This document shows, in pieces, positions 3,599 through 29,683 of a stretch of DNA of 64,000 bases. The position numbers and the translations under genes were made by a program. Origin of the DNA: a virus. How positions within the stretch are numbered: position 1 is the first letter of the stretch; every line of letters begins with the position of its first letter. The stretch lies in the IMG/VR virus record IMGVR_UViG_3300050015_000276, positions 96,001 through 160,000 of that record. One strand, written 5' to 3'. The notes below the pieces were generated by a model. It did no database searches. It was not told the DNA's origin and saw only the letters and a program-made list of their open reading frames with translations.

Positions 3599-3640
3599 CA
3601 AGCGTATGAAGGGATTTATGTTAAGCAAACTTACGATGAG
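3598..3640. other. Abrupt GC-rich to AT-rich compositional junction
   Basis: Composition changes within ~20 nt after the stop codon of the 952-aa ORF. Confidence 0.9.
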
Positions 3641-3687
3641 TTGTCAATCCTTATAAAGAGTTAATAAATTAGTATATTAAATTCTTA

Positions 3688-3733
3688 ACTTAAAGTTGGA
3701 CTCATAAATATATTTATGAGTCCAACTTTAAGT
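3688..3733. repeat. Perfect 46-bp palindrome overlapping the gp3 late promoter and start codon
   Basis: ACTTAAAGTTGGACTCATAAATA|TATTTATGAGTCCAACTTTAAGT, no spacer. Confidence 0.95.
3703..3710 (+). promoter_or_regulatory. T4-type late promoter motif (CATAAATA)
   Basis: Matches the gp55-recognised TATAAATA-like motif just upstream of the gp3 ATG. Confidence 0.6.
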
Positions 3734-4294
3734 GGTATTTATACACGTCAACAAAAAAATGTAAATCCTTTATTACCAAATAAATTTACATTTATGCTCA
3801 CCAAGTTACCAGAATTATCAATGGCAGCTACAAGCTGTAATATTCCTGGTATTACTTTGCCAAATTGGAAACAATTGAGTCAATTTAATCCCATTCCACG
3901 ATCCGGTCTTAATCTTGAATATGAAGATTTAGAAGTCCGGTTCATTGTTGATGAAGATTTCAATAATTGGAGTGAACTTAATAATTGGATGAGATTGATG
4001 GCACTCTCAAAAGATAGTACTGAATATCAACAAGTAAAATTAGAACAATTACAACCTGGTCCTGAAGGTGGATTAGTATCAGATGCCCAAGTTGTTGTTC
4101 TCACTAACCAATCAGTTGCTAATATGGTATTTTACTTTCGTGATGCTTTCCCAGTTTATCTCAGTGAAATAGCTTTAACAAATTCAACAGATGATCCTAG
4201 TGTAATCGAATGTGTTGTACGTTTTGCCTACTCATACTACGAGTTCGAAAATGTTAATCCAGAACCATTAGACCCAACAGAACAGTCCTCATAA
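3716..4294 (+). CDS. gp3: Tail completion/sheath stabilizer protein (T4 gp3-like)
   Basis: N.L.PNKF.F.L..LP, NIPGITL and L.YEDLEVRFIVDEDF.NW motifs; syntenic upstream of uvsY-uvsW. Confidence 0.8.
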   Translation: MSPTLSGIYTRQQKNVNPLLPNKFTFMLTKLPELSMAATSCNIPGITLPNWKQLSQFNPIPRSGLNLEYEDLEVRFIVDEDFNNWSELNNWMRLMALSKDSTEYQQVKLEQLQPGPEGGLVSDAQVVVLTNQSVANMVFYFRDAFPVYLSEIALTNSTDDPSVIECVVRFAYSYYEFENVNPEPLDPTEQSS

Positions 4295-10085: not shown

Positions 10086-11186
10086 ATGAATTTTAAAAGA
10101 AATCGTACATATGAAGAAAAATTAATTGATGCGTTGGACAATAATATTAAAAATATTGAACCTTCCAAAAGAGAAAATATTTTACAGGAAATGAAAACAA
10201 ATCTCGTAAGTGAAAATGTTATCAAAATACGAAAATATATTGTAGAAAAATATTTTGGAAGTCTACCTGAAAATGGAGCAAACACAGCGATTTATTGGAT
10301 TGCAAGAGGCTGGGAAGAATATACAGCAAAACGAAAATCTTCAGAATTTTTAGCCAAGAAAGGAAAGAGAAAATCACCTTTTCAAGTTTCGTTTTGGTTA
10401 GAAAAAGAAAATCCAAATACAGGTAAAAAGTTTACTGAACAGGAAGCAGAATATAAAGTAAGATCTCAAAGACCAATTAATTCAGAATATTGGATAGAAA
10501 AAGGATATTCTGAAGAGGAATCAATTAAATTAGCTTTAGATAAAAAAGATTCTAACAATAAAAGTGGTGCAAAAGCTAGTAGGAATAGATCTGGATTATC
10601 TATACGAAAAAGCAGTAAACGATGTGCTGAATATTGGATAGAACGAGGTAAGACAAAAGAAGAGGCTATTGAAGAAGTTAAAAAAAGTCAAAGTACTTTT
10701 TCTTTGGAAAAATGTATACTTAAGTTTGGTGAGGAAGAAGGAACTAAAAAGTGGCAAAAAAGACAAGACAAATGGATAAAAACTTTAAATTCTAAACCTC
10801 AAGAAGAAAAAGATAGAATTAATAGATCAAAAGTTGCTTTCGGTGGTATTTCAAAAGCCGAAAAATTTATAATGTCTAAAATAATTGATATTATTCCAGA
10901 ATTGCAAGTTCAATATAATATTGGAAATTATATTTGTGATTTTGTTTTGAACAAAAATGCTGTGGAATATTTTGGAGATTATTGGCATTGTAATCCTAAA
11001 AAATATAAACCAAAATTCATTAATAAAGTTAGTGGTTTGTCTGCTGAAGAAATTTGGGAAAAAGATAAGAAGCGAATAAAAGTTTATGAAGAAAATGGAT
11101 TCACAGTTAAAATTATTTGGGAAGATGACTTTAAAAAAAATCCTGAAAAAATTATATTGGATATTTTAAGTTTTTTGAAATCATAA
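10086..11186 (+). mobile_element. Free-standing Vsr/DUF559 (EDxHD-like) homing endonuclease between the split-intein halves
   Basis: C-terminal CDF.....AVEYFGDYWHCNP, KDKKR....E.GFTVKIIWE.D; N-terminal YW..KG.SEEE repeats. Confidence 0.8.
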
Positions 11187-11187
11187 A

Positions 11188-13143
11188 ATGATTTGTACAC
11201 TTCAAGATATTTATAACTTTTATAAAGAGTTTCCACAATATAGGGGACAACTTTCGGTTGAAACTCGTTTTGGATATTATCCAATTTTAGCTTGCGAATA
11301 TACGGCATACAATTCAGATGTTTATTTGGTAGAAATAGAAAATAATCATCTACTTTGTTCGCCAGAACATGAATTGTTTGTCAACGATTCATGGAAACAT
11401 GTTAGGGATATTCATTTAGGAGATAATATAAAAACTAAAGATGGTAATGAGAAAGTGAAAATATCCTTACTTCCGCAAAAAATGGATTTAATGGATTTAC
11501 AAGTTGCTGAAGTACATGAATTTTATGCCAATGATATTGTTTCTCATAATTCAACTTTATTGGATGCATTAACATTTGTATTGTTTGGAGTACCCTTTAG
11601 GAATGTTAATATTCCTATGTTAGTAAATGATACTAATGAAAGGGACATGGTTGTTGAGATTGAATTTAATTCTGGAAGAACAAACTATAAAGTCCGACGT
11701 GGATTAAAACCGCGAGTATTTGAAATTTATGCAAATAATGTGATGCTAGACCAGGAGTCTAAGGCAAAGGATTATCAGAAGTATCTTGAACAAAATATCC
11801 TTAAGTTAAATTTGAAATCATTCAAACAGGTTGTGGTACTTGGAAGTGCATCTTTTACACCATTTTTACAATTGTCTGCGGTTGAACGCCGAAATATTAT
11901 TGAAGATCTTTTAGATATTCAGATTTTTTCAGCCATGAATCTTGCACTTAAAGTAAAAGTGGCAGAAATGAAAGAGGAATACATTTCTCTTTCTAATTCT
12001 ATCGAATTACAAACGGAAAAGATTGCGCTTATAAATGCTTATCTTAATAAATTAAAATCGGATAATGTGAATGCTATATCTGATAAGCGTTTAATTATTA
12101 ATGATAATAATCAACAAATAGAAACAATTTCAGATCAGATCAGAGGTATTGAGGAAGAAATTTCAGAGTTATTTACAACAATCGATGATAAGGAAAAAGT
12201 TCAGGGTAGAATTCAAAAATTACAATCTGCGGAAGACAAATTAGAGACCAATAAAATTAAGGTTGTTAAAGAAAAAAAGTTTTATGAAGAAACAAGTAAT
12301 TGCCCAACATGTAAACAAGGTATTGATGATACATTTAAAAATGATATAATATCTCAAAAAACAGTTTTAATAAAAGATATTGAAAAGGCTTTGGTATCTT
12401 TAACAAAAGATCTGAATACTTCAGAGGCTAGGTTAGTTGAGATTTTGGAAATTACAAAAAATATTGAGAACAAAACAAATGAGATTAGACATTTGGAAAG
12501 TACTGTCCGCGCCATCGATTCCTTCATTAATAAAGTCGAAGTTGAGATTGAAGATCTCCAAAAGAATAATGGTAACACGAAAGAACAGGAAACTAAATTA
12601 CAAGATCTTGAAAGTGATATGATTTCTTTGGCATCGGAACGTGATATTTTGATTTCTAGAAAGCATTCATTGGATATTATTTCTGTGTTATTGAAAGATA
12701 CTGGAATTAAGACCAAGATTATTAGACAGTATCTTCCAATCATGAATAAATATGTCAATAGGTATTTGGCCGATATGGATTTCTTTGCCAACTTTGCACT
12801 GGATGAAAATTTTCGAGATACAATTCACATTCGTGGAAGTAAAGAAAGAACCTATTACCAATTAAGTGAAGGACAAAAATTAAGAATTGATTTGGCACTT
12901 TTATTTTGTTGGCGGGATATAGCTAAAATTAAAAATAGTGCAAGTACTAATCTTCTCATAATGGATGAGATATTTGAACGTAGTATGGATGCTACCGGTC
13001 TTGAGGATTTATTAAAAGTAATTCATAGTTTGAGTAGGGATATTAATATTTTTATTCTCAGTCCTCAGGGTGATTTGTTGATTGATAAGTTTATCAATAC
13101 TATTAAGTTTGTAGAAGATCATGGATTTTCCGTGATTGAATGA
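11188..13143 (+). CDS. gp46: C-intein (121 aa, 11188-11550) fused to the gp46 C-extein (Rad50/SbcC-like ATPase)
   Basis: Block B-like CSPEHELF, block F DLQV, block G IVSHN|STLLDAL; Zn-hook CPTCKQ; signature LSEGQK; Walker B LLIMDE. Confidence 0.9.
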   Translation: MICTLQDIYNFYKEFPQYRGQLSVETRFGYYPILACEYTAYNSDVYLVEIENNHLLCSPEHELFVNDSWKHVRDIHLGDNIKTKDGNEKVKISLLPQKMDLMDLQVAEVHEFYANDIVSHNSTLLDALTFVLFGVPFRNVNIPMLVNDTNERDMVVEIEFNSGRTNYKVRRGLKPRVFEIYANNVMLDQESKAKDYQKYLEQNILKLNLKSFKQVVVLGSASFTPFLQLSAVERRNIIEDLLDIQIFSAMNLALKVKVAEMKEEYISLSNSIELQTEKIALINAYLNKLKSDNVNAISDKRLIINDNNQQIETISDQIRGIEEEISELFTTIDDKEKVQGRIQKLQSAEDKLETNKIKVVKEKKFYEETSNCPTCKQGIDDTFKNDIISQKTVLIKDIEKALVSLTKDLNTSEARLVEILEITKNIENKTNEIRHLESTVRAIDSFINKVEVEIEDLQKNNGNTKEQETKLQDLESDMISLASERDILISRKHSLDIISVLLKDTGIKTKIIRQYLPIMNKYVNRYLADMDFFANFALDENFRDTIHIRGSKERTYYQLSEGQKLRIDLALLFCWRDIAKIKNSASTNLLIMDEIFERSMDATGLEDLLKVIHSLSRDINIFILSPQGDLLIDKFINTIKFVEDHGFSVIE

Positions 13144-13151
13144 TATTTAAC

Positions 13152-13180
13152 TTGTTCTCCTTAGAATTTTGTGTTATAAT
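13152..13180 (+). promoter_or_regulatory. sigma70-type promoter of the PLP-GNAT-ACP operon
   Basis: TTGTTC-17-TATAAT with TG extension. Confidence 0.6.
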
Positions 13181-13189
13181 AGTTAATGT

Positions 13190-14149
13190 ATGAATATTTC
13201 TTTGCCCAAATATACTCCAAATAATTATGAAAATTTAATGTCCTCGATAGATCCGATTGATGAATATTTGGGATTTTCACTGAAAATGGGAGATAATTTT
13301 CATCTTGGACCAATTGTTGGCTCGAAGGCGCGCCAATGTTTGCATGTTGTACATTCTAATTTGGAATATATCAAAAATAAATGTAACGGTGGTATTTTAA
13401 CTGCCGCAGGATTGCCATCTCCTCAAACAATGATTGTCTCGGCGGTTGCTAAATATTTTGGTTTAAAATGTGTTATTACGATTCCCAAATACGATAATAC
13501 TAAACGAGATTTTAATCGTATTAATGCTTCAATGGCGCAGAAATTTGGAGCGATTGTATACGGTGTGGGAAATCCAAATCCGGCTGGTCCAGAACATGAT
13601 GCAAAAGAATTATCAAAACAATTAGGATATTTTCAAGTTAAATTTGGTATGACAGGTGATGTTGCAATGCAGCCCGTATCTAATCAAGTTCAAAATATTC
13701 CAGAATATGTTAAAGATATTGTAATTATTAGTGGATCTGGTTTATCGGCATTGAGTGTCCTATTAGGTACAGCAATGTTCGATAATAATATTGAGACTCT
13801 CCATACTGTGTGTTTGAGCAATCATATATTAAAGAATAAAGAAAAGTGGTATGATTCTAATCCACTTTCATGTAAAGTAAAAACTAAGTTACATTTGATT
13901 CCTTCAGATATTAATTATCGAACAGAATATAAATGGAATAAATCTTTCGACTTTGATTTGATTTATGAGAGTAAAGCATTTTTGTGGATGGTTGAGAATT
14001 TTAAGCCTTCGAAGGAAGTTTTGTTTTGGGTTGTTGGAAAAAGATTATATGATTTGACTTTGATTGAGGATATAAACTGGCATATGTCCAATCATGAAAA
14101 AGAGTTAAGAGAAGAACCGACAGATTTTATGGAACAATTTTTCGTATGA
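13190..14149 (+). CDS. PLP-dependent enzyme, fold type II (ACC deaminase/D-cysteine desulfhydrase-like)
   Basis: GSKARQ (Schiff-base Lys), SPQ..IVSAVA..FGLKC, GSGLSA, D.IYE.KA, LFW..G. Confidence 0.7.
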   Translation: MNISLPKYTPNNYENLMSSIDPIDEYLGFSLKMGDNFHLGPIVGSKARQCLHVVHSNLEYIKNKCNGGILTAAGLPSPQTMIVSAVAKYFGLKCVITIPKYDNTKRDFNRINASMAQKFGAIVYGVGNPNPAGPEHDAKELSKQLGYFQVKFGMTGDVAMQPVSNQVQNIPEYVKDIVIISGSGLSALSVLLGTAMFDNNIETLHTVCLSNHILKNKEKWYDSNPLSCKVKTKLHLIPSDINYRTEYKWNKSFDFDLIYESKAFLWMVENFKPSKEVLFWVVGKRLYDLTLIEDINWHMSNHEKELREEPTDFMEQFFV

Positions 14150-14628
14150 GTTTACTAAGACTAGCAAAAATAGAGGAAGTTCCACAAATACATAAAGAGT
14201 TTCAAAAGTTTGAAAAGAAACAAAAGTTGGAGGGTAAACCTCCAGTATTTGCTTTTATTAGACAAGATTATTTAAAGCGGTGTGTTGCTGATGCAACATT
14301 GTATTTTGATGATGGAATTATTGCCGTATTGAAACAATATAAAGTGAGAACGAAATACGGTAATGAAAAAGGTGAGTGGGGTTTATTGGAACTTTTAAAT
14401 ACTAATTTATCGAATAATTTTACTATATTGAAATTCATGCATAAGTTATTAGATGAAAAGGTTAAAAATAGTAAACTTTATGCTACTATTAGAGATGATA
14501 ATGTAGCGTCAATAAAATTTCATACGGCGTTTGGATATAAACGTACAAAAGATATTATGTGGTCTAATGGTACGTTACCTGGTGGAGTTTATGTTTTTAA
14601 CAATATGAAAGATAAGGATTGGTTTTAA
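14146..14628 (+). CDS. GNAT-family acyltransferase
   Basis: ATIR.DN.ASIKFH..FGY motif B. Confidence 0.7.
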   Translation: MSLLRLAKIEEVPQIHKEFQKFEKKQKLEGKPPVFAFIRQDYLKRCVADATLYFDDGIIAVLKQYKVRTKYGNEKGEWGLLELLNTNLSNNFTILKFMHKLLDEKVKNSKLYATIRDDNVASIKFHTAFGYKRTKDIMWSNGTLPGGVYVFNNMKDKDWF

Positions 14629-14631
14629 ATA

Positions 14632-14934
14632 ATGGAAAAAACCTGTGTAGAAACACTTTGTGATATTTATTCGCGGTTTATACCTACCGGACAAGTATAC
14701 GTTGCAACTGCTAACACTAAGATTTTTGGATGTGATACTGTTTTGGATTCTTTTGGATTAGTTTCTTTCCTGGTAGATGTCGAACAGCATTTTAATGATT
14801 TGTATGATGCCAATATTGTTGTGACAGATAGTAAAGCTATGTCACAAAAACATAGTCCTTTCCGTACAATTGATACGTTATCCAAATATATAATTAAATT
14901 GTTGTCAGAAAAAGGTATCGCCAATGTTGTCTGA
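14632..14934 (+). CDS. Acyl carrier protein
   Basis: LDSFGLV phosphopantetheine-attachment Ser; SQKHSPFRTIDTLSKYI terminal helix typical of glycan-locus ACPs. Confidence 0.75.
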   Translation: MEKTCVETLCDIYSRFIPTGQVYVATANTKIFGCDTVLDSFGLVSFLVDVEQHFNDLYDANIVVTDSKAMSQKHSPFRTIDTLSKYIIKLLSEKGIANVV

Positions 14935-15628
14935 TTTACCGATTGCTCTTGTTACTGGTAGCAGAACTGGTTTGGGAGAATTCATTGCTAAAGGTCTTGT
15001 TTCCAAAGGTTTTTATGTTGTTGGATGCAGTCGCAATCAACCAAATTGGTCATTGAAAGGATACGAACATATTATTGCTGATGTGAGTGATGAAAATTCT
15101 GTATTAGATTTGATGAAGTATATTAGAGTTGAGTATGGACGTTTGGATGCCACTATTAATAATGCTGGAATAGCTTCCATGAACCATTCATTATTAACAC
15201 CTACGAAAACAGTGGAACATCTTCTTGGTGTAAATGTTTGTGGTACATTTACAGTATGCCGAGAAAGTGCAAAAATTATGCAAAAACAGAAATATGGACG
15301 TATTGTTAATTTTACTACCGTTGCGGTTCCTATGCATATTGAAGGTGAAGCTTTATATGCTGCCAGTAAAAGTGCTGTAGAAACTCTTACTAAAGTATTG
15401 GCATTTGAATTGGGTAGTTATGGTATTACTATTAACGCTGTAGGTCCTACTCCTATTGATACTAATTTAATACTTAATGTTCCTGAATATCGAACAAATC
15501 AGGTTATTCAGAAATTGGCAATTAAACGGATGGGTACGCGCGAGGACGTTTTTAATGTTATTGAGTTTTTTATACGTCCAGAAAGTAGTGCCATTACAGG
15601 GCAAGTTATATATTTGGGTGGGGTATAA
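14924..15628 (+). CDS. SDR oxidoreductase (FabG-like 3-oxoacyl-ACP reductase)
   Basis: TGSRTGLG, NNAG, YAASK catalytic motif. Confidence 0.88.
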   Translation: MLSDLPIALVTGSRTGLGEFIAKGLVSKGFYVVGCSRNQPNWSLKGYEHIIADVSDENSVLDLMKYIRVEYGRLDATINNAGIASMNHSLLTPTKTVEHLLGVNVCGTFTVCRESAKIMQKQKYGRIVNFTTVAVPMHIEGEALYAASKSAVETLTKVLAFELGSYGITINAVGPTPIDTNLILNVPEYRTNQVIQKLAIKRMGTREDVFNVIEFFIRPESSAITGQVIYLGGV

Positions 15629-16968
15629 TGAATCATCTTGATTGGTTGTTTGATATATTTAAACAAAATGCTGGCCGGACTTTCATGGTTTGGGGTGGCC
15701 TTCCTATTACATATTCAAATTTAATACGTTATATACAATATTATAAAGAGAAATTTATTGAATCTGGAATTAAAGGTGGAAAAGTAATAGCTTTACATGG
15801 GGATTATTCACCTAATAATGTGGCCGCTTTGTTAGCTTTGGTTGATGATGGAAATATTGTAGTTCCTTTAGCATCAATTAAAGAAGAATTTATAGATATT
15901 GCTGAAGTTCAGGCTATTTGTTCTTTTGATGAATATGGAAAAATACAACTTAAGTGGTTTCCTAGAGAAGTACATCACCAACTTAATTTGGATATAATTG
16001 CTAGTGGTAATCCGGGTTTGATTTTGTTTAGTTCAGGATCTACTGGAAAATGTAAAGCGTCAATGCATGATTTTTTGCAAGTATTGAATAAATTTAAAAT
16101 TCCTAGACGACAATTGGTAACATTACCTTTTCTTAAATTTGACCATATGGGAGGAATCAATACACTTTTTGGTGTATTATCAAATGCTGGTACTCTAGTT
16201 CTTAGTTCTAATCGAGATCCAGAATTTGTGTGTTCGGCTATTGAAAAGTATAGAGTTGAATTGTTGCCAACTTCACCTACTTTCCTTAATCTTTTGTTGG
16301 TTTCCGAGGCATATCAGAAATATGATTTATCTTCTCTCAAATTTATTAGTTATGGATCTGAAATGATGCCTCAGGTGACCTTATTACGTATTGCAGAACT
16401 TTTTCCCAATGTTAAGTTATTACAAACTTATGGACTTTCTGAGGTTGGTGTTTTAAGATCAAAGAGTGAGAGTTCCAATTCTTTGTGGCTCAAAGTTGGT
16501 GGTGAAGATTTTCAAACTAAAGTTGAGGATGGAATATTATTCATTAAGGCAAATTCTGCGATGAAAGGATATTTTAATGCTCCTTCTCCTTTTGTTGATG
16601 GTTGGATGAATACTGGCGACCGAGTAGAAGTGAAGGGAGAATATATACGTTTTCTTGGTCGTGATTCAGAAATCATTAATGTTGGTGGACAAAAAGTTTA
16701 TCCGGCAGAAGTTGAAAATGTTTTACTGTCTATGAGTAATGTTTGTGATGTTACCGTTTCGGCTGAATCTAATTTTTTAATGGGTTATATAGTAGTAGCT
16801 CGATTTAATCTAATTGATAATGAAGATTTCTTATCATTTAAATCCAGAGTGAGAGAATATTGTAAGTCGCGTCTTGAGTCATTTAAAATACCAACTCGAA
16901 TAGAGATAGTAGAAAAAGAACTATTTAATAGTCGTTTTAAGAAAATAAGGTTTCAGGAGCAAATGTGA
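15628..16968 (+). CDS. AMP-forming acyl-CoA/acyl-ACP ligase (ANL superfamily)
   Basis: FSSGSTGKCK, QTYGLSE, TGD, GR.SEIINVGGQKVYPAEVE, C-terminal K. Confidence 0.88.
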   Translation: MNHLDWLFDIFKQNAGRTFMVWGGLPITYSNLIRYIQYYKEKFIESGIKGGKVIALHGDYSPNNVAALLALVDDGNIVVPLASIKEEFIDIAEVQAICSFDEYGKIQLKWFPREVHHQLNLDIIASGNPGLILFSSGSTGKCKASMHDFLQVLNKFKIPRRQLVTLPFLKFDHMGGINTLFGVLSNAGTLVLSSNRDPEFVCSAIEKYRVELLPTSPTFLNLLLVSEAYQKYDLSSLKFISYGSEMMPQVTLLRIAELFPNVKLLQTYGLSEVGVLRSKSESSNSLWLKVGGEDFQTKVEDGILFIKANSAMKGYFNAPSPFVDGWMNTGDRVEVKGEYIRFLGRDSEIINVGGQKVYPAEVENVLLSMSNVCDVTVSAESNFLMGYIVVARFNLIDNEDFLSFKSRVREYCKSRLESFKIPTRIEIVEKELFNSRFKKIRFQEQM

Positions 16969-18674
16969 ATAACCAACCAAAGTATTATTATGATAGAAAT
17001 TCTTATATTATCGATGATTATAACATTAATAAAACTTTTGAAGAATTGTTGTTAATGTCAGTTACAGAATTTGAAGGGTGGGTTGACCACATGCGTTCAA
17101 GTGTTTTGAAGGTGTGGGATGAAAAAGGAATACCACCTCTTTCTGGAATGACTGAAGATGATATGTCTGAAGAATTCCGTAAAATGAGCGGAACGCCTGG
17201 TAAAACTATTTCATTATATAAACCAAAATCTGGAAGTACTAAGCCATATATTGATGAATTAGATGGTAAGGCTAATGTGATTATCAATGATGGTTATATG
17301 GGAAGTTGTGTAAATCAGTTCTTTCCAACAATGGCCCAGACAAAGATTAATTATCAGACAAAGATTAATGATGAAGGTAGTTTTTCTGGATATGCCGTAT
17401 ATGATCTTTTTGCTAATGATAAATTTCGAAATAGAATGCAAAAGGGATGTCGGAGACATTTTAAACGAGACTCATTCTACCGTTATTCAGCATCTATTCT
17501 CAAAAATAGTAATTTAGGGCTCGTACCAGCAGAAACCGGCAAAGAGTGGGTTCAATTATTTAAAAGAGATTTTGTCCGATTTGTAGATTATGGATATTGG
17601 CTCAATAGAGTAGAACCGACAGAAGAAGGTGAAACTGGTAGCGGATATACAGAAGTTGATGCTTCTAATTTCTTGTGGTTATCTAAAGCCGAGATTTTGG
17701 AATTATATCATTTAGGAATTATTAATGATGAAAATCTTACTAATTTGGTTGATTTGAGATCATATGAATTACTTCCTAAATTTGTTTGTTGGACTCCAGA
17801 ATTGGAATTAGAAAGACATTTGAAAGAGGATGAACAATATCATATTCGATTTTATAAGAAATCAACACGAATATTTCCAATAGGATTTACCGCTTTTAAA
17901 ATAGGTTACATACAAGTTGCAGTTAATTTTCCACCTATGATTGCTAAGTATTTGTATGAAAAATACACAGATAATTGTAAAGGACAGCATGTTATTAATG
18001 TTTACGACCCATCATCCGGATGGGGCGGCCGCATAGCTGGTGCTATGACAGTTCAGGAAGATCGGCATATTAATTATATTGGAACCGATCCGAATACAGA
18101 TAATTTTATTGATGAACTTGGTATTACTCGTTATGAGTATTTGGCACAATTTATTAATCAATCGCTTTCATCAGGATGGGGGTATGAACCTCATACTTAT
18201 GATGTTTATCAATTGGGTTCCGAAGTAATTGGAAAAGATAAGAAATTTAAAAAGTATAAAGGTAAATTAGATTTGGTGTTCACCTCTCCGCCATATTTTA
18301 ATCGTGAAGGTTATTCTGAAGATGAAACTCAATCTTTGAAGAAATTCCCTCAGTATGATGCCTGGCGAGAAGGATTTTTGAAGCCAACGCTGACAACAGC
18401 ATATACTTATTTAAAACCAGACCGGTATCTTTTATGGAATATTGCCGACATTAAAACATCTGAAGGATATTATCCTCTTGAACAAGATAGTAAAGATATT
18501 TTAAAATCTCTGGGAGCCGAATTTGTTGGAGTGGAAAAGATGGTTTTGGCAAATATGCCTGGAACTAATCGGGTAGGTGAAGATGGTAAACCTACATGCA
18601 AAAATTTCTGCAAAGTAAATGGTCGTTGGCATAAAACTGAATTGATTTTTATTTTTAGGAAACCAAAGATATAA
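16965..18674 (+). CDS. Large SAM-dependent DNA methyltransferase-like protein (N6A/N4C type)
   Basis: YDPSSGWGGR (motif I), IGTDPN, DLVFTSPPYF (motif IV). Confidence 0.78.
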   Translation: MNNQPKYYYDRNSYIIDDYNINKTFEELLLMSVTEFEGWVDHMRSSVLKVWDEKGIPPLSGMTEDDMSEEFRKMSGTPGKTISLYKPKSGSTKPYIDELDGKANVIINDGYMGSCVNQFFPTMAQTKINYQTKINDEGSFSGYAVYDLFANDKFRNRMQKGCRRHFKRDSFYRYSASILKNSNLGLVPAETGKEWVQLFKRDFVRFVDYGYWLNRVEPTEEGETGSGYTEVDASNFLWLSKAEILELYHLGIINDENLTNLVDLRSYELLPKFVCWTPELELERHLKEDEQYHIRFYKKSTRIFPIGFTAFKIGYIQVAVNFPPMIAKYLYEKYTDNCKGQHVINVYDPSSGWGGRIAGAMTVQEDRHINYIGTDPNTDNFIDELGITRYEYLAQFINQSLSSGWGYEPHTYDVYQLGSEVIGKDKKFKKYKGKLDLVFTSPPYFNREGYSEDETQSLKKFPQYDAWREGFLKPTLTTAYTYLKPDRYLLWNIADIKTSEGYYPLEQDSKDILKSLGAEFVGVEKMVLANMPGTNRVGEDGKPTCKNFCKVNGRWHKTELIFIFRKPKI

Positions 18675-18703
18675 TTGACATCCTAGAATTTTCTTGATAA
18701 AAT
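18675..18703 (+). promoter_or_regulatory. sigma70-type early promoter
   Basis: TTGACA-17-TAAAAT. Confidence 0.7.
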
Positions 18704-18710: not shown

Positions 18711-19184
18711 ATGAATATCTTTGTTTTGGATACTGATTTTGAAAAGTGTGCTAATTACATGGTAGATTCTCATGTGGTTAAAATGCCAACAGAACATACG
18801 CAGATTTTGTCCACAGTTTGTAGAGTTAATGGTTTAGATGTTGGAATGAAATCAACGCACCAACATCATCCCTGTACTTTGTGGGCCGGTAAATCTAAAC
18901 AAAATTATATTTGGTTACGTGATCTTACTCTGGTTATTGGTGAAGAATGGTGTACAAGATTTAATCATATTTGTGCGGATGAACATAAGAGTATTGCGGT
19001 ACTTAAAACTCTTCCAATACCAAATCTTCCTAATATTGGGTTGACAGAGCACGCATTGGCCATGCCGGAAGAATATCGGGAGTGTGATCCTGTTAAGGCC
19101 TATCGCAAATATTACATCGGAGCCAAACAGCATTTGGCTAAATGGAAGCACGGGATTACTCCTTCTTGGTATACAACCAAATAA
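18711..19184 (+). CDS. denV: Pyrimidine dimer DNA glycosylase (DenV/PF03013-like)
   Basis: MNIFVLD, D.HVVKM..E..QILST, TH.HHPCT.W. Confidence 0.75.
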   Translation: MNIFVLDTDFEKCANYMVDSHVVKMPTEHTQILSTVCRVNGLDVGMKSTHQHHPCTLWAGKSKQNYIWLRDLTLVIGEEWCTRFNHICADEHKSIAVLKTLPIPNLPNIGLTEHALAMPEEYRECDPVKAYRKYYIGAKQHLAKWKHGITPSWYTTK

Positions 19185-19238: not shown

Positions 19239-20684
19239 ATGCAAAACCCCTTAGTATCCTGTATAACTGTTACGACCGCAAACCGTAAAGAATTCTTTCC
19301 GCAATTACTTCGTTGTTGGTGGGAACAGACATATCTAAACACGGAACTTGTAATTGTTTCGGAAGATGATATGTCTGATGTTATTCCAGTTCATCCGAGA
19401 ATTCGTTTTATTTCATGTCCATCCGGAACGTCCTTGGGACAAAAACGTAATATTGCATGTGAAAATTCTCAAGGTGAAATTATTGCTCATTTTGATGATG
19501 ATGATTGGAGTGCACCTATCCGAATTGAGGAATGTGTAAAGGCTTTAATTAAACATAAAGTCTTTATTACAGGTTATAGAAATGCTCGTTTCTATGAAGT
19601 TGATACTAAATTAACGCGTGTGTGGGATGGTGGTCCAAATCTTATTATTGGATCGAGTTTAGTATATGCTAAGAATTTTTGGCAAACTCATAAATTTGAA
19701 GATATTCCAACAGGAGAAGATCTTAAGTTTTTAGCATCTTCAGGTTTAATATATGCTATGAATGGTATGGAAAGAATGATTTTCCGAGATCATTCGAACA
19801 ATACGTGGCCACGTGCAGAAAAATATAATAAAGCTTGGAAAATTGTTGATTCTATTGAAACTCAAGAATTGTTATATAGTCAGAAACCTATTAAAATTGT
19901 AATGGGTATGTTGTCTTGGAATGATAAGGAAACAACACTCAATAATCTTGATACTTTATATGCTGAAGCAAAGAGATTACGACAATTTAATTTTGATTCG
20001 GAGGTTGTTGTAGTTGATAATGGATCTACTGATGGTACAAAACAGGCCCTTAGAAAAGTAAAGAATATTCATGTTATATCCAATAAAACTAATTTGGGTA
20101 TTGCGCCGGCTCGTAATCAATTGTTTGAATATGCCAAAGTCTTCGATTCGGAATTTACATTTTCTGTAGATTGTGATATTGCTGTAGTTCCATTTTCAGT
20201 TTTAGAAATGCTACGTTGGTTACGTTTACGGGCGAATATTGCAGCGTGTATTGGAACTGAATGGGATTTATGCACTGAAGATCCAACAAAAGTGGCCACT
20301 TGGTGTCCTACTATTACTATTAATACGCACATTCAACCACATCAGGCACCATTAGGATATGGTTTGTGGTTTACAAATGTTTTGAATCGATATAGATTTG
20401 ATGAACGATTTGGACCTGGTTGGGGTGGGGAAGATAATGATTTAGCATTGACAATTGAGTCTGAAACATATTTGAAAATGTTTGTATTTCCTTTAAAGTA
20501 TTTACATTTACATCCACATAAATCTATAGATTTACTTAAAGTTGATGGTGTGGATCCTGAAAAGGTTGTTCGTGAACGCTACCAAATACTTATTGATAAA
20601 TGGGTAGAAATTCCAGAGTTTAAACCTTTTATTAAAAGGTTAGTGCAATCTAAGAATTTGGAAAGTAATATTTTACCAACATGA
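19239..20684 (+). CDS. Tandem two-domain family 2 glycosyltransferase
   Basis: PLVSCI, HFDDDDW, GED; second domain VVVDNGSTDG, VDCD, GWGGEDNDL. Confidence 0.82.
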   Translation: MQNPLVSCITVTTANRKEFFPQLLRCWWEQTYLNTELVIVSEDDMSDVIPVHPRIRFISCPSGTSLGQKRNIACENSQGEIIAHFDDDDWSAPIRIEECVKALIKHKVFITGYRNARFYEVDTKLTRVWDGGPNLIIGSSLVYAKNFWQTHKFEDIPTGEDLKFLASSGLIYAMNGMERMIFRDHSNNTWPRAEKYNKAWKIVDSIETQELLYSQKPIKIVMGMLSWNDKETTLNNLDTLYAEAKRLRQFNFDSEVVVVDNGSTDGTKQALRKVKNIHVISNKTNLGIAPARNQLFEYAKVFDSEFTFSVDCDIAVVPFSVLEMLRWLRLRANIAACIGTEWDLCTEDPTKVATWCPTITINTHIQPHQAPLGYGLWFTNVLNRYRFDERFGPGWGGEDNDLALTIESETYLKMFVFPLKYLHLHPHKSIDLLKVDGVDPEKVVRERYQILIDKWVEIPEFKPFIKRLVQSKNLESNILPT

Positions 20685-21397
20685 AACCTATAATTTGGGT
20701 TTATTGGGAAAATAAACCAGGACAGTCTGATCCATTAATAGTTCAGAGATGCAAAGAGATTTTTAGACAATATAAAAATGTAATTATTCTCAATGAAAAT
20801 ACAATTAAAAATTATGTGAATTTGATAGATTGTAGTCATATAAAAATTCTAGCATATAAAGGTGATTATTATCGTGCCAAATTACTTTCTGAATATGGTG
20901 GAATTTGGTTTGATGCTGATTCTATTTTGTTGGATGATTTTAGTGATTTGTATGATCAATTATTAAATAGTGATTTTGAGATGTGCGCAGAGAATTCGGC
21001 CGAAAGTTGTAGTCCATCTTGTTTGTTATTTAAACCTAAAAGTGTTATTGCGAAGAAATGGAGTTTATATTGTGAAGAAATGATACTTGCTGGAAAATGT
21101 ATGGATTTAAATGATTGGGGACAACTTGCTGGATATGCTCTTGCTAGAATTATTAAAGAAACTAATAATAGTGTGATGGAATTTCCTGGAAGATATATGT
21201 TTTCTCTTGGTTACGAAAATAGAATTTTTATGAATTATTATAGTCAAGATGCCAGATATATTAAACAACAATTGCAACAAATTAAAACACAAGGAGCCAA
21301 AGTTATCACATTATATGGTACGTTTATGTATAATCTTATTATACCAAACCAATGCTTATTAGAACAGATGTGGACAATGGCAAAAATAAATGAATAA
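20681..21397 (+). CDS. DXD glycosyltransferase (capsular polysaccharide synthesis PF05704/GT32-like)
   Basis: IWVYWE, DYYRAKLLSEYGGIWFDAD. Confidence 0.75.
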   Translation: MKPIIWVYWENKPGQSDPLIVQRCKEIFRQYKNVIILNENTIKNYVNLIDCSHIKILAYKGDYYRAKLLSEYGGIWFDADSILLDDFSDLYDQLLNSDFEMCAENSAESCSPSCLLFKPKSVIAKKWSLYCEEMILAGKCMDLNDWGQLAGYALARIIKETNNSVMEFPGRYMFSLGYENRIFMNYYSQDARYIKQQLQQIKTQGAKVITLYGTFMYNLIIPNQCLLEQMWTMAKINE

Positions 21398-21961
21398 TAA
21401 CGAAGATGTTTCGGTATCGGGTGTTGGTTCCTCTCGGGCCGCTACTAAAAAATTAGATTAGAAATTCCTGAATTATTAAAAACTTTTAAGGTTAAGACAT
21501 TATTGGATTTACCGTGTGGGGATTATCATTGGATGCAACATGTTAATTTGTACGGTATATTGTATACTGGGGCCGATATAAATGAGGAAAGAATTGTGGA
21601 TAACAAACAAAAGTATCCAGAAATTCACTTTGAAGTATTAGATATTACTTCAGATCCTCTTCCTAAAAGTGATGTTGTTTTGGTGAGAGATTGTTTGGTT
21701 CATTTGGACAATAAGAGTATTTGGAAGACTATCAAAAATCTGAAGAAGAGTGGATCAACATATCTATTAACTACGAATTTTCCAGTCATTATTCATTCTA
21801 CTTTAAATAATAATATTAAAACCGGTGGTTGGCGTCCATTAAATTTTCAATTAAAACCTTTTAATTTTCCAGAACCTATTGGCGTGATTGTAGAGAATTG
21901 TACTGAGGAACCTTGGATTGATAAATCATTGTGCCTTTGGAAAATTGAAAATCTTTCTTGA
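21390..21961 (+). pseudogene. Class I SAM-dependent methyltransferase with a frameshift at an A6 run (~21455); possibly a sequencing deletion
   Basis: SVSGVGSS in frame 1 joins (K)IRLEIPELLK...LLDLPCGD after adding one A; span 572 nt. Confidence 0.7.
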
Positions 21962-21986
21962 CATTTAATTGTGTTTGTGATATACT
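21958..21986 (+). promoter_or_regulatory. sigma70-type early promoter
   Basis: TTGACA-17-TATACT. Confidence 0.72.
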
Positions 21987-21992
21987 TTATGT

Positions 21993-22841
21993 ATGGTACC
22001 TTTGAAGAATCGAAATCGAAAGGCGTATTCATTCGCCAATATTAATTTATTGGGAAAATGTAATGCTGATTGTTATTTTTGTCTCGGTAAAGATATTCCT
22101 TCTGAATTGGTCGGAAAGAATCAACTTTCGGTTCATTTTACACAATGGAAGAATTTTAAGAGTTTCTTAACGCAGTGCCGAGATAATGACATTTCGAAAT
22201 TATATTTAACTGGACAAACGGCCGACGGACTTCAATATGTTTACCTAGATGAATTAATTGATTATCTTCAGGATAAATGTGGATTTTCTGTTGGTATTCG
22301 AACGAATGGTTATCTCGCTTTAAAAAGGATGACAACCATTCGTAAGATGAAAGATGAAATCGGGTACAGTATTCACACCCTGAATTGTACTAATAATAAC
22401 CTTATTATGGGTAGACGAGATTTGCCAGAGTGGAATAAGATTATACCACAAAGTGGTGATAATGTACGAGTTGCCATTGTATTGAATCGTTATAATGTTT
22501 TAGAATTTTATTCTCTTTGTGAATATATTTCTCAATTTCCAAATGTTAATTATATTCAGGTTCGCCGGGTTTCAACAGATACTCGAATGGTATTTCTTAA
22601 TGAAGATATTGATATTTTTGAAAAGTTTTACCAATGCTTTATTTCTTACAATAAACCTATCCGCGAATATTATGGTGCTCCTATTTTCAAACTTTTTGGT
22701 AAGGATATTGTATTTTGGAGAACAGTTGAGACTTCAATAAATTCCTTAAACTACTTTACAGACGGAACGTGTTCCGATGAGTATTTTGTGGTAGAAGGAT
22801 ATCTTAAGAATCAGGATGTAAATAATGCAGAAGGCACTTAG
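21993..22841 (+). CDS. Radical SAM protein
   Basis: CNADCYFC (CxxxCxxC) near the N-terminus; RTNG. Confidence 0.78.
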   Translation: MVPLKNRNRKAYSFANINLLGKCNADCYFCLGKDIPSELVGKNQLSVHFTQWKNFKSFLTQCRDNDISKLYLTGQTADGLQYVYLDELIDYLQDKCGFSVGIRTNGYLALKRMTTIRKMKDEIGYSIHTLNCTNNNLIMGRRDLPEWNKIIPQSGDNVRVAIVLNRYNVLEFYSLCEYISQFPNVNYIQVRRVSTDTRMVFLNEDIDIFEKFYQCFISYNKPIREYYGAPIFKLFGKDIVFWRTVETSINSLNYFTDGTCSDEYFVVEGYLKNQDVNNAEGT

Positions 22842-23871
22842 TTTTGATGATACACTATTAGTTCCAAAAAGAACATTTGGTGGCAGTCGTGGGCAGGTTG
22901 ATATATCCACAAATATTTGTGGATATAATATGAAAATTCCTATTTTTTCGGCTAATATGTCTTCGGTAACTGAATCAGAAATGGCTATTGCAATGCGGCG
23001 AAATGGTGGCCTTGGAGTTCTTCATCGAATGTGTGATCCTGCCGAAAATATTAAAATGGTGAAAAATGTGTATTTGGGACTTTCAGAAGACGACTATACT
23101 AAAACTCCAGTATTTGTTTCTTTGCCATCTAATGGATTTGATGCTCTCAATAGAATAAAGGATACTCTTGAATTTAAACCTTATGGTTATTGCATAGATG
23201 TAGCACATGCTGATTCTCCTGATGTGGAAGAAACTGTAAAACGAATTATACAAGAATATCCGGAATTAAATTTGATTGTTGGTAATTATGCGACACCCGA
23301 AGGTATTAGAAATCTTATCAATATAATTGATAAAAAAGATCTTTCTAGAGTTGCATTTAAAGTGGGAATTGGTAGCGGAAGCCAATGTTCTACACGTATT
23401 GTTACCGGTTGTGGTATTCCTACATTAGAAAGTATATTTCGAATTAGAAATAATGATTATATACCAAAAGATATTAAATTGATTGCTGATGGTGGAATTC
23501 GTAATTCTGGTGATATTGTAAAAGTTTTGGCCTCTGGCGCGGATGCAGTTATGTTAGGTAGTTTGTTGGCTGGAACTAAAGAGGCTCCCGGTAATGTTAT
23601 TAAAAATTCTGGTGGTCTTTATAAGATTTATAGAGGCAGCGCCTCATATGGACAGAAGTTTGAAGTGGGAAAACAAGGATATATTGAAGGAACAGAAACT
23701 TTAGTGCCATACAAAGGCCATGTTACAACTATTCTTACTCAATTGGTAGAGGGAATCAAATCAGGATTTTCCTATTGTGGTTCCCTTAATCTTGAAGAAT
23801 TGCAAGATAATGCGGAATTTGTCGAAATATCAAATGCTGGATATAGAGAAAGTACACCTCATGGGGTTTAA
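22825..23871 (+). CDS. guaB: IMP dehydrogenase / GMP reductase (CBS-less)
   Basis: LSFDD.LLVP, SANM..VTE, GIGSGSQCSTR (catalytic Cys), IADGGI, GAD.VMLGSLLAG; IMPDH versus GMPR not resolved. Confidence 0.8.
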   Translation: MQKALSFDDTLLVPKRTFGGSRGQVDISTNICGYNMKIPIFSANMSSVTESEMAIAMRRNGGLGVLHRMCDPAENIKMVKNVYLGLSEDDYTKTPVFVSLPSNGFDALNRIKDTLEFKPYGYCIDVAHADSPDVEETVKRIIQEYPELNLIVGNYATPEGIRNLINIIDKKDLSRVAFKVGIGSGSQCSTRIVTGCGIPTLESIFRIRNNDYIPKDIKLIADGGIRNSGDIVKVLASGADAVMLGSLLAGTKEAPGNVIKNSGGLYKIYRGSASYGQKFEVGKQGYIEGTETLVPYKGHVTTILTQLVEGIKSGFSYCGSLNLEELQDNAEFVEISNAGYRESTPHGV

Positions 23872-28218: not shown

Positions 28219-28643
28219 TGATCAATATGAATAGTGCTGTGTGGGTCAAAGAACCTGACCCAGTAAAAAATAATTTACCTGCCGTGTGGGATCTGGTTTT
28301 GTCGGACCTTGAATTGTCACGGAAGAATCTTTCTAATGCTCCTCAATATCAAATATTGGATCTGTTAATAGCAGATATTCATTTGAGAGATATTACAGGC
28401 GAGAAGAAATATGGAGTTCGTCTTCAACCATTTAATGGTAGGAAGAATCTCAAAGATGCATATGAGGAGTTCTTGGATGCTGTTGTATATTTGCGTGCTG
28501 AATACTTCGAAATGACTTCTGGTGAGAAGACCGAAGAAATTGAAAGTTATGCCAGAAGTATTGGAGTTTTGTATACGACGGCACTGGATGCTTCTCTTAA
28601 ATTAAGATATTTAATGGAATTGAAAAAGGAACAGAATGGCTAA
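28218..28643 (+). CDS. Hypothetical protein, possible all-alpha NTP pyrophosphohydrolase-like
   Basis: G.KKYG..L...NGR..L.DAYEE.LDA.VYL. Confidence 0.45.
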   Translation: MINMNSAVWVKEPDPVKNNLPAVWDLVLSDLELSRKNLSNAPQYQILDLLIADIHLRDITGEKKYGVRLQPFNGRKNLKDAYEEFLDAVVYLRAEYFEMTSGEKTEEIESYARSIGVLYTTALDASLKLRYLMELKKEQNG

Positions 28644-29352
28644 AGCGAAATCGAAAATGGTAACAGAAATTACACCGGCAACAATTGAAGTTTTAAAGAA
28701 TGCTGCCCAGATTAATCAAACTCTGCTATTTCCTGTGGGAAATAAGTTGATAACGCGTTCAGTGAAAAAGCATACTTATTTGGAGACAGTTGTTGCTGAA
28801 TCTTTTCCAAAGAGGTTTACTATTTATGATTTGAATCAATTTCTTTCGGTAGTTACCCAATTTGAGAAACCAACATTGAATTTTGGTGATGCTGAGGAAT
28901 ATGTTAAGATCAGTGATGACGGTGGAGGAATGTCTGTTAAGTTTCATTATGGTGATGAATCGTTAGCATATATTCCTGATCCCAATAAGAGTGTTGCATT
29001 GCCAAGTACAGAAGTGACTGTGAAATTAACTGAAAAGGATTTCCGTCAAATTACAAATATGGCTCGTACTTTAGGCACTCCAGAACTTGCCCTCGAAAGT
29101 GATGGAAAAGTGTTAAAGTTGGTAACGATGGATAGTAAGAATTCGGCAACGAACACTACTGACCTACCAATTGGTGATGCTCCTTCAGATATTCCTTTTA
29201 CGTTTGTATGGAAGATTGAGTATCTAAAACTTATACCTGGAACCTATGAATTGGCAGTGAGTAAAGCGGGCTTGAGCCGATTCAAGCATTCGGATATGCA
29301 AATTGTATATCATATTGTCCTTGAGGCTGCTAGTACTAAATACGGAGAATAA
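28636..29352 (+). CDS. gp45: Sliding clamp gp45
   Basis: T..VLKN...IN..L, F.IYDLNQFLS; synteny with gp44/gp62. Confidence 0.85.
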   Translation: MAKAKSKMVTEITPATIEVLKNAAQINQTLLFPVGNKLITRSVKKHTYLETVVAESFPKRFTIYDLNQFLSVVTQFEKPTLNFGDAEEYVKISDDGGGMSVKFHYGDESLAYIPDPNKSVALPSTEVTVKLTEKDFRQITNMARTLGTPELALESDGKVLKLVTMDSKNSATNTTDLPIGDAPSDIPFTFVWKIEYLKLIPGTYELAVSKAGLSRFKHSDMQIVYHIVLEAASTKYGE

Positions 29353-29354
29353 TT

Positions 29355-29594: not shown

Positions 29595-29602
29595 TAGTTT
29601 AA

Positions 29603-29678
29603 GGGGATGTCTGCCAACTGGTAAAGCAAGCGGACCTTCAATCCATTAATCCGAGTTCGAGTCTCGGCGTCCCTACCA
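29603..29678 (+). tRNA. trnE: tRNA, anticodon most likely TTC (Glu) with non-canonical C33
   Basis: Cloverleaf GGGGATG/CGTCCCT, T-arm CCGAG-TTCGAGT-CTCGG, loop CC-TTC-AA, CCA end. Confidence 0.7.
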
Positions 29679-29683
29679 AAAAT

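Follow-up and report, generated by a model that had tools for sequence, protein, structure and literature searches.

Introduction

What would a bacteriophage do with an acyl-carrier protein, two enzymes that may load it and reduce its cargo, and a methyltransferase-like protein, all encoded side by side among its replication genes? This question is raised by a stretch of 64,000 nucleotides (hereafter the window; bases 96,001-160,000 of the IMG/VR virus record IMGVR_UViG_3300050015_000276, with coordinates below given as window positions unless a contig precedes them), in which six genes follow each other: those of a pyridoxal-phosphate (PLP) enzyme (P0001), a GNAT-fold acyltransferase (P0002), an acyl-carrier-like protein (ACP; P0003), a short-chain dehydrogenase/reductase (SDR; P0004), an ANL-superfamily ligase (P0005) and a methyltransferase-like protein (P0006). 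The source record of 179,687 bp, which has direct terminal repeats and is graded complete, belongs to a T4-like phage of peat soil with a G+C content of ~33%; its closest cultured relatives are cyanomyoviruses of distant similarity, and the stretch is present in public metagenome runs from peat, ponds and lakes.

A preliminary description, made from the letters alone, had proposed that the six genes form a candidate carrier-protein-dependent pathway for the acylation of phage DNA, or else of a glycan. Part of this has stood, as gene fusions in other viruses tie the PLP and GNAT families to the methyltransferase-fold gene; judged by sequence comparison, however, the six genes are a recent composite in one lineage and not an ancestral six-gene pathway. 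The operon appears to join a phage-specific base-modification core (P0006, P0001 and P0002) to a captured bacterial trio (P0003 to P0005). We give about an even chance to the reading in which the core would build an amine-bearing side chain on a base of the phage DNA and the GNAT would acylate this amine from the acyl-carrier protein.

A PLP enzyme related to DNA-acting decarboxylases

By sequence, P0001 is a homolog of gp226 of phage ViI, which, like gp52 of phage M6, has been shown in purified form to decarboxylate amino-acid:base conjugates within DNA (PMC8989533), and decarboxylation of base adducts is its predicted role. The similarity to ViI gp226 has been detected by BLASTP (1e-11) and, with the P0001-family profile A2, by hhalign over 259 columns (99.1%, E 4e-19). 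The predicted Schiff-base lysine of P0001, Lys46 (IVGSKARQ), is invariant in 16 relatives and aligns with K92 of gp226 (INGSKLRQ), the residue named as the Schiff-base lysine of that enzyme (PMC8989533). Among the PDB sequences, profile A2 finds fold-type II PLP enzymes (cysteine synthase, TrpB, ACC deaminase; 6e-7), and the single protein matches Pfam PALP at 4e-4, under the Pfam cut-off. Fold-type II PLP enzymes catalyse beta-replacement and deamination as well. An intermediate family member (L064) has matched 346 cultured-phage records, mostly of Salmonella, Vibrio, Klebsiella and Escherichia phages, with ~157-kb genomes at E 1e-18 to 1e-20 among the matches listed, and in Glutamicibacter phage Montesquieu a P0001 relative is flanked by genes for an aGPT-Pplase of clade 2 and for a kinase.

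In the soil clade, P0001 ends in a C-terminal extension of 30 residues (window 14100-14149; L001:8500-8542; L010:12700-12739), which closes with DFMEQFFV, DFMDQFFI or SIERFFV and is not found in the marine relatives. As a candidate sliding-clamp-binding tail, ...DFMEQFFV resembles those of T4 replication proteins.

Fusions with methyltransferase-like domains

The constant partner of P0001 and P0002, P0006, combines a virus-specific N-terminal domain (~1-320) with a class I amino-methyltransferase-like domain. Domains of both kinds, the PLP and the methyltransferase-like one, have been found in a single polypeptide in two cultured phages, Erythrobacter phage vB_EliS_R6L (gp1, 807 aa; L171:3816-6236) and Pseudanabaena phage Pam4 (gp70, 829 aa; L179:2310-4799), whose proteins are 37% identical over ~700 residues. 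Their common layout begins with a ParB-like part that bears a DPxNxRxH motif, followed by motif I (DPFAGGS), a complete PLP domain recognised by profile A2 (99.8%, E 3e-28), motif IV (SCPPY) and the rest of the methyltransferase-like domain. A marine relative of P0001 is 40% identical to part of R6L gp1 and also to a 236-aa protein of Microcystis phage Mae-JY30, the match with Pam4 gp70 being more distant. In Mae-JY30 (L172:4111-5702), a 294-aa methyltransferase-like gene overlaps the adjoining PLP gene, and its product aligns with the catalytic domain of P0006 (hhalign 93%, E 2e-7), with ...PPY-x3-E-x-YS-x-D... and LKPDR(F/Y) in common. The records annotate the proteins of the three phages as 'DNA modification methylase' or 'PLP-dependent enzyme', and the fusions or their neighbours as ParB/Srx; a literature search has found no study of R6L gp1, Pam4 gp70 or the Mae-JY30 methyltransferase and PLP proteins.

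These proteins thus resemble the operon in pairing a P0001-type PLP enzyme with an amino-methyltransferase-like domain in which motif I precedes motif IV and the ...PPY-x3-E-x-YS-x-D... pattern recurs, with no adjoining genes for 5-hydroxymethyluracil (5-hmU). They differ from it in forming one polypeptide or a two-gene unit, in having a ParB-like N-part instead of the T4-like N-domain, and in lacking both the GNAT and the trio.

The GNAT family has its own fusion: a search of long proteins with the GNAT profile has revealed P0246 (562 aa), in which a P0006-type catalytic domain (99.9%, 33% identity) is followed by a P0002-type GNAT (99.9%). Because both families occur fused to methyltransferase-like domains in other viruses, they are tied to the methyltransferase-fold gene rather than to sugars, and these fusions, together with the recurrent overlapping adjacency described below, argue that P0006, P0001 and P0002 act on one substrate. 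The links of the PLP enzyme and the GNAT to phage base hypermodification, which the preliminary description had taken as established, have gained from these fusions, the former also from the homology with gp226. In a metagenome contig, another protein (P0245, 588 aa) joins a P0002-type GNAT to a 2-oxoglutarate oxygenase resembling Asp/Asn beta-hydroxylase (AspH-like).

P0002 itself can be assigned by sequence to a phage-specific family of GNAT-fold acyltransferases. The single protein matches Pfam Acetyltransf_4 at 3e-4, under the Pfam cut-off, and the family profile A3 finds GNATs of the Naa50, PaiA and RimI types among the PDB sequences (7.5e-6 and weaker). In alignment A3, the Q/RxxGxG/A loop that binds the pyrophosphate of coenzyme A is degenerate in the soil clade (NLSNNFT in P0002, otherwise NLTDNFA and DNPLHV), and marine relatives carry GNGxA at this position. 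A tblastn search of cultured phages with a marine P0002 relative has returned zero matches. The predicted complex of P0006 and P0002 has received a score of 0.09, which we count neither way.

Absence of the thymidine hypermodification route

The complete genome yields no match to ThyA or ThyX (PF00303, PF02511) and no credible tblastn match to PaMx11 gp51. The kinase of 5-hydroxymethyldeoxyuridine (5-hmdU; PaMx11 gp49), the aGPT-Pplase (PaMx11 gp46) and neighbours from Bordetella phage CN2 have found nothing at E <0.01 by tblastn and phmmer, at single-sequence and not profile sensitivity. As hydroxymethylase, kinase and amino-acid:DNA transferase are all missing, the ViI/M6 route, which the preliminary description had named, cannot run here, and we have rejected it in its classical form. 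The same description had noticed that phosphopantetheinyl transferase (PPTase), 5-hmU kinase and aGPT-Pplase are absent from the window, which holds for the complete genome, too. With ThyA, ThyX, the 5-hmdU DNA kinase and aGPT-Pplase missing, an amino-acid handle would therefore need another installer, and P0006 is the partner that is always there. DegT aminotransferases (PF01041) and sugar epimerases/dehydratases (PF01370) likewise have no match in the complete genome, so the phage makes no amino sugar of its own.

A carrier-protein trio of bacterial origin

P0003 contains the motif LDSFGLVS, in which Ser40 (LDSFGL) is the predicted phosphopantetheine site and is invariant in 26 of 26 family sequences. 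The profile built from these sequences retrieves carrier proteins in 50 of 50 PDB matches (best 5e-5). In the structural model (pLDDT 87), Ser40 is located at the start of the second helix (40-58), and 49 of the 50 top Foldseek matches are acyl, peptidyl or aminoacyl carrier proteins (TM 0.4-0.78 by target, E 0.1-1.4). No family match has been obtained in Pfam, NCBIfam and PHROG at E up to 0.01, the curated PP-binding model included; P0003 represents a divergent branch of the carrier proteins. P0004 is a classical SDR resembling the 3-oxoacyl reductase FabG, with TGxxxGxG and YAASK motifs (adh_short 6e-41, adh_short_C2 1.4e-42; NCBIfam 3-oxoacyl-ACP reductase 2.8e-45, under the equivalog cut-off). 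P0005 matches the Pfam families AMP-binding (PF00501, 5.5e-30) and AMP-binding_C (PF13193, 6e-5), and its SSGSTGK, YGLSE and TGD motifs as well as the terminal catalytic lysine K438 are invariant among 18 relatives; it is an ANL-superfamily adenylating ligase, predicted to load an acid onto P0003.

Relatives of P0005 number in the thousands. One phage relative is 76% identical, and otherwise the best matches are 450-aa bacterial proteins at 55-65% identity, distributed over Acidobacteriota, Chloroflexota and many other phyla, with at least 567 matching stretches in species-representative genomes. In IMG/VR, a scan with the single protein has found nothing and one with the P0005 profile five contigs, and tblastn against cultured phages gives distant ANL ligases alone, mostly in records that resemble bacterial contamination.

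As the preliminary description had stated, trios of this kind belong to bacterial surface-glycan loci: in 78 of 82 bacterial loci surveyed across many phyla, the three genes are contiguous and in the order of P0003-P0004-P0005. The small protein of these trios is 43-44% identical to P0003, and one Acidobacteria locus has 43/64/59% identity to P0003/P0004/P0005. Neighbours in the 82 loci are hexapeptide-repeat (LbH) acyltransferases (31), DegT (13), UDP-GlcNAc 2-epimerase (12) and 4,6-dehydratase (11), further GT2 enzymes and occasionally KAS III. The same gene order of ACP, 3-oxoacyl-ACP reductase and AMP-synthetase has been described in the group II flagellin glycosylation islands of Aeromonas (PMC7874193). 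From this context, the bacterial trio would supply an acyl group for the N-acylation of nucleotide-linked amino sugars. We know of no biochemical test of its function.

The gene immediately before that of the ACP encodes, in the nearest bacterial loci as well as in four other viral contigs, a GNAT-like protein of 250-288 aa, with genes for DegT, dehydratase and glycosyltransferase downstream. The GNAT-like proteins (L004:8126-8983, L176:6142-6984, L177:5499-6347, L182:4768-5526, L185:6101-6874) have weak Pfam matches or none, and in the sugar pathway they probably act as N-acyltransferases that depend on acyl-ACP. A 285-aa protein preceding a bacterial ACP, considered as a possible relative of P0001 or P0002, is unrelated (hhalign versus the GNAT family 0.3%). 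Relatives of P0001, P0002 and P0006 are absent from all 82 bacterial loci and the other viral trio contigs, the bacterial loci having been scanned with the P0001 and P0002 profiles. In the phage, P0002 fills the slot before the ACP where the GNAT of the bacterial trio stands. The sister phage L010 has the order P0006-P0001-P0002 and no trio, so the trio is an addition in one lineage. Sequence and gene order indicate that it has been captured from bacterial loci for amino-sugar N-acylation, minus their own acyltransferase, and inserted directly behind the GNAT. Phage and bacteria thus share three homologous, contiguous genes in the same order with an invariant carrier serine, and differ in that bacteria add a 4,6-dehydratase, DegT, an LbH or large GNAT acyltransferase, and glycosyltransferases or flippases, the first three of which are missing in the phage.

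The methyltransferase-like partner

P0006 carries motif I as YDPSSGWGGR (DPSSGWGGR at ~348-356) and motif IV as TSPPY (SPPY at 441-444), both invariant in 20 relatives, and matches Pfam N6_N4_Mtase (1e-6; 29.2 bits against a cut-off of 26.7). The preliminary description had called it a DNA methyltransferase. The class I fold, the SPPY motif and the N6_N4_Mtase match place it among the N6/N4 amino-methyltransferases of the (D/N/S)PP(Y/F) class, but a DNA substrate and the transfer of a methyl group have found no support, the nearest solved folds of its model (pLDDT 86.5) being the tRNA amino-methyltransferase types Trm11, Trm14 and TrmN, besides lmo1582 (Z 13.7-15.4). Foldseek with the whole model finds generic methyltransferases alone (TM ~0.2-0.27 by query), the family profile has no match among the PDB sequences, hence no solved DNA methyltransferase by sequence, and a search of the ESM Atlas with the N-domain has returned viral hypothetical proteins alone.

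Protein clusters contain 2081 relatives of P0006, and IMG/VR has at least 596 stretches that match it, on uncultured phage contigs. In a sample of 86 loci, some of them redundant, the relatives occupy the slot just downstream of gp46, ~30 of them directly after it. A P0001-type gene is present in 34 of the 86 loci and a P0002-type gene in 28, mostly directly upstream of the P0006 relative and often overlapping, and both occur together in the soil clade only. Other neighbours vary: an AspH-like oxygenase, NAD-dependent epimerase/dehydratases, TylF-like and small methyltransferases, and an HAD-like protein.

The AspH-like genes lie upstream of P0006 relatives (L023:2005-3222). Directly after P0006 relatives, a protein of 362-499 aa with a glutamine-synthetase catalytic domain is encoded in 11 loci (L077:11600-13099, L037:11575-12675 and 9 more), and another protein, of 371-385 aa and without Pfam match, comes after them in 38 loci. 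The two are candidates for additional sculpting enzymes of the P0006 module. Between gp46 and P0006, the slot also holds N6_N4_Mtase, Dam and homing-endonuclease-like genes (L064:8384-9049, L063:2827-3327, L052:6970-8049). Such ordinary DNA methyltransferases, together with a homing-endonuclease-like gene, mark the slot as a general insertion hot spot.

Organization and genomic setting of the operon

The operon is located in the recombination/replication block between gp46 and gp45 (Table 1). All six open reading frames have been located on the plus strand with the overlaps and abutments first described, five of five junctions being of this kind, and every motif named at that time for the carrier protein, the ligase, the SDR and the methyltransferase is present.

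Table 1. Positions of the operon genes and flanking features within the window.
Feature	Position	Strand	Remarks
gp47 and gp46 homologs	10086-13143		
Promoter-like region, gp46 to P0001	13152-13189	+	TTGTTC 13152-13157, TGtTATAAT ~13173-13181; sequence pattern
P0001, PLP enzyme, 319 aa	13190-14149	+	
P0002, GNAT-fold acyltransferase, 160 aa	14146-14628	+	ATGA overlap with P0001
P0003, acyl-carrier-like protein, 100 aa	14632-14934	+	3-nt gap after P0002
P0004, SDR, 234 aa	14924-15628	+	11-nt overlap with P0003
P0005, ANL ligase, 446 aa	15628-16968	+	TAATG junction with P0004
P0006, methyltransferase-like, 569 aa	16965-18674	+	GTGA junction with P0005
Strong promoter-like site closing the unit, ahead of the denV-like gene	18675-18703	+	TTGACA-17-TAAAAT with TG; 11/12, best in the scanned region
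denV-like gene	18711-19184		
gp45 and gp44	28636-30929		

The single promoter postulated earlier has fared less clearly. A sigma-70-like pattern does sit within the 46-nt gap 3' of gp46, but a consensus scan upstream of P0001 finds a weak match alone (ATGATA-16-TAGAAT at 13140-13167, 9/12), and promoter-like sites in the scanned region are not more frequent than in shuffled sequence. No terminator-like site has been found between the operon genes, and the strong promoter-like site ahead of the denV-like gene starts one base past the P0006 stop. Taking both sites into account, the one in the gap after gp46 and the one past the last stop, the six genes therefore look like one unit, apart from the downstream denV and glycosyltransferase genes.

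An assembly chimera has been considered and rejected, as the block recurs in other data. Three independent soil-metagenome contigs (L001-L003) keep the six genes in the same order downstream of gp46 at 70-86% amino-acid identity; peat-metagenome contigs from two other studies tile the block, in one study in all 30 depth bins, and short peat contigs span the GNAT/ACP, ACP/SDR and SDR/ligase junctions. Among cultured phages, megablast has found no match to the block and tblastn none to P0001.

Beyond the glycosyltransferase genes that follow denV, the region 19239-23871 holds a short open reading frame resembling S-adenosylmethionine (SAM) methyltransferases (152 aa), a weakly radical-SAM-like one (282 aa) and a gene of the GMP reductase/IMPDH family (348 aa), the last of which stands at the same place in the relatives L001, L010 and L011. 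Window positions 1-4000 have a G+C content of 0.55-0.60 against ~0.33 elsewhere in the genome, where comparable high-GC stretches are found at 52-64 kb and 92-100 kb.

A proposed route to an acylated base

The substrate of a gp226-type enzyme has to bear a free alpha-amino acid or amine, and that of a GNAT an amine. As the sole constant partner is a SAM-type enzyme with a pocket for the exocyclic amine of a base, P0006 is proposed as the installer. In a first step, its SPPY pocket would take a flipped-out base of the phage DNA and add an amino-acid-type side chain, for which the 3-amino-3-carboxypropyl group of SAM would be the most economical source. P0001 would then decarboxylate the side chain and leave a primary amine, as gp226 does on O-serinyl-thymidine. 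P0005 would adenylate a short acid, probably a 3-oxo acid, and load it onto holo-P0003; P0004 would reduce it to the 3-hydroxyacyl form, and P0002 would move the acyl group from the carrier to the base amine. This would yield a base with an N-acylated aminoalkyl group, by which the DNA would be protected from nucleases of the host. Four points of the scheme are inferences, drawn from family relationships, fusions, gene order and chemical precedent: that DNA is the target, which group P0006 transfers, which acid is loaded, and that acyl-ACP serves P0002 as donor. Aminocarboxypropyl transfer, followed by decarboxylation to an aminopropyl chain by P0001, is the simplest model, because it covers the three layouts observed, in which P0006 is accompanied by the PLP enzyme, the GNAT or the two of them; as a variant, P0001 might produce decarboxylated SAM and P0006 might be an aminopropyl transferase.

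To our knowledge, all phage hypermodifications with amino-acid-derived groups known so far start from 5-hydroxymethyl pyrimidines. Literature searches have yielded no account of a methyltransferase-like protein paired with a gp226-type enzyme, nor of their fusion or of a base-modification operon that includes a carrier protein, the papers obtained on these subjects being those on the Aeromonas islands and on thymidine hypermodification; the absence is not proven. We see a substantial probability that installation and carrier-dependent acylation are both novel chemistries. More boldly, though this is unlikely to be right, one may postulate a large, undescribed class in which the P0006 family, together with the fused forms of the cultured Erythrobacter and Pseudanabaena phages, would put the aminocarboxypropyl group of SAM on an exocyclic base amine and swappable enzymes, namely a gp226-type decarboxylase, a GNAT, a glutamine-synthetase-like ligase and an AspH-like oxygenase, would sculpt it; the recruited trio would here give an N-(3-hydroxyacyl)aminopropyl base by the first carrier-protein-dependent acylation of DNA.

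Several observations weigh against a core that acts on DNA bases and draws on the carrier protein. The likeness of P0006 to the methyltransferase-like parts of R6L, Pam4 and Mae-JY30 is remote, and its neighbours among solved folds are (D/N)PPY amino-methyltransferases of tRNA and rRNA and not DNA enzymes, at a small margin (Z ~15 versus ~12 for generic methyltransferases), so that an RNA target or plain methylation is possible. Sugar-type enzymes (epimerase/dehydratase, TylF, HAD, glycosyltransferase) occur among the variable neighbours of P0006 relatives, the trio elsewhere (82 bacterial loci, four other viral contigs) sits in amino-sugar pathways, and glycosyltransferase genes lie 0.6-2.7 kb downstream of the operon. 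The PPTase family PF01648, Sfp-type included, has no match in the complete genome, so a host enzyme must prime P0003. Finally, PaMx11 gp48 has been rejected as a specific relative of the P0002 family, the hhalign result (93%, 15% identity) having been judged a generic GNAT likeness.

Alternative explanations

The bacterial background of the trio leads to the explanation that it acts with P0002 on sugars. The (3-hydroxy)acyl group would be put on a host-made nucleotide amino sugar, the downstream glycosyltransferases would attach this sugar to the virion fibres or the host envelope, and P0006 would be a bystander methyltransferase. Besides the dehydratase, DegT, acyltransferase and glycosyltransferase genes around the trio in the 82 bacterial loci and four viral contigs, and the Aeromonas islands, this would fit the double GT2 (481 aa) and the Caps_synth-like glycosyltransferase (238 aa) encoded at 19239-21397, beyond the denV-like gene, as well as FucT, GT2 and Methyltransf_21 genes downstream in relatives; P0002 has also a weak PseH-like match (8e-4, far under the cut-off). 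However, the phage has no DegT, no dehydratase/epimerase and none of the acyltransferase types seen with the bacterial trio, and its glycosyltransferase genes are set apart from the operon by the denV-like repair gene and by another promoter-like site, a strong one. The P0001 and P0002 families are tied by position and gene fusion to methyltransferase-like enzymes and not to sugar genes, and P0001 is related to a DNA-acting decarboxylase. Glycan acylation would leave unexplained why the trio has been captured without sugar enzymes or acyltransferase and placed inside a module that fuses to methyltransferase-like domains, and we consider it unlikely, though worth keeping in sight.

Alternatively, the genes may share no pathway at all: the site after gp46 would be an insertion hot spot, P0006 a plain DNA methyltransferase for N6-adenine or N4-cytosine, and the rest unrelated auxiliary metabolic genes. 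The high variability of the slot (N6_N4_Mtase, Dam, homing-endonuclease-like, DnaB-like and sugar enzymes), the loci in which P0006 follows gp46 without a partner, and the joining of the trio to P0006 in a single lineage are all in line with this. What makes it quite improbable in our judgement are the independent fusions, of PLP with methyltransferase-like domains in two cultured phage groups and of GNAT with a methyltransferase-like domain, the recurrence of P0001-type or P0002-type genes directly upstream of, and often overlapping, the P0006 relative in the sampled loci, and the five operon junctions, all of which overlap or abut.

Tyw2 and Tsr3 carry out SAM-dependent aminocarboxypropyl transfer onto RNA. 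A phage or host tRNA or rRNA base that receives an acylated amino-acid-derived side chain from P0006 and its partners, which would tune translation or guard against anticodon nucleases, is thus suggested by a transfer so far known on RNA only, as also catalysed by TapT (PMC12630136), and by the nearest solved structures of P0006, the tRNA/rRNA amino-methyltransferases Trm11, Trm14, TrmN, TrmM, METTL5 and RsmC (Z 12-15), but is improbable to a still higher degree, since the characterised P0001 relatives act on DNA (PMC8989533), the R6L and Pam4 fusions have the ParB-like DPxNxRxH part and records that say ParB/Srx or DNA methylase, the P0006 gene lies within the recombination/replication block from gp46 to gp45, and the tRNA enzymes score but slightly above generic methyltransferases.

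Relation to known modification chemistries

The proposed base-modification core resembles the thymidine hypermodifications of ViI, M6 and PaMx11 in three respects: its fold-type II PLP enzyme P0001 belongs to one family with ViI gp226, its genes are located within the replication block and, as proposed here, a base within the DNA polymer would receive an amino-acid-type adduct that is sculpted afterwards. By analogy, the amine, once unmasked, could be acylated by P0002 in the way in which PaMx11 gp48 acetylates 5-aminomethyl-deoxyuridine (PMC5889632; PMC8989533). In contrast to these systems, the phage has no dUMP hydroxymethylase, 5-hmdU DNA kinase or aGPT-Pplase, the constant partner in its module is an amino-methyltransferase-like protein of the SAM type, whose N-domain is virus-specific, and the donor machinery of ACP, ketoreductase and ligase has no counterpart there. 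With another constant partner and no 5-hmU enzymes, the modified base and the installation of the adduct must therefore differ from those of ViI, M6 and PaMx11.

For the installing step, TapT, Tyw2, Tsr3 and the spermidine synthase class may serve as analogues, being a precedent for moving the amino-acid part of SAM, and not its methyl group, onto a nucleobase or amine, some of them with a class I methyltransferase fold. They are an analogy only, as no specific kinship of P0006 with them has been found in sequence or fold, BpsA reaching a Z of 12.3, no better than generic methyltransferases. We know of no SAM-dependent aminocarboxypropyl or aminopropyl transferase that acts on DNA.

Implications

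The module has the sculpting enzyme of known hypermodification pathways without their installing enzymes, and its constant partner, the SAM-type enzyme P0006, recurs in hundreds of uncultured T4-like phages of soil, fresh water and the sea. Three cultured phages (R6L, Pam4 and Mae-JY30) carry the core, which makes direct testing at the bench feasible. If the proposed route is true, there would be a second, widespread way of hanging amino-acid-type chains on DNA, and phages would be able to plug a carrier system in the style of fatty-acid or polyketide synthesis into base chemistry. This would be relevant for the evasion of restriction and CRISPR and for the completeness with which phages are detected in sequencing surveys, and the enzymes may become tools for the site-directed labelling of DNA.

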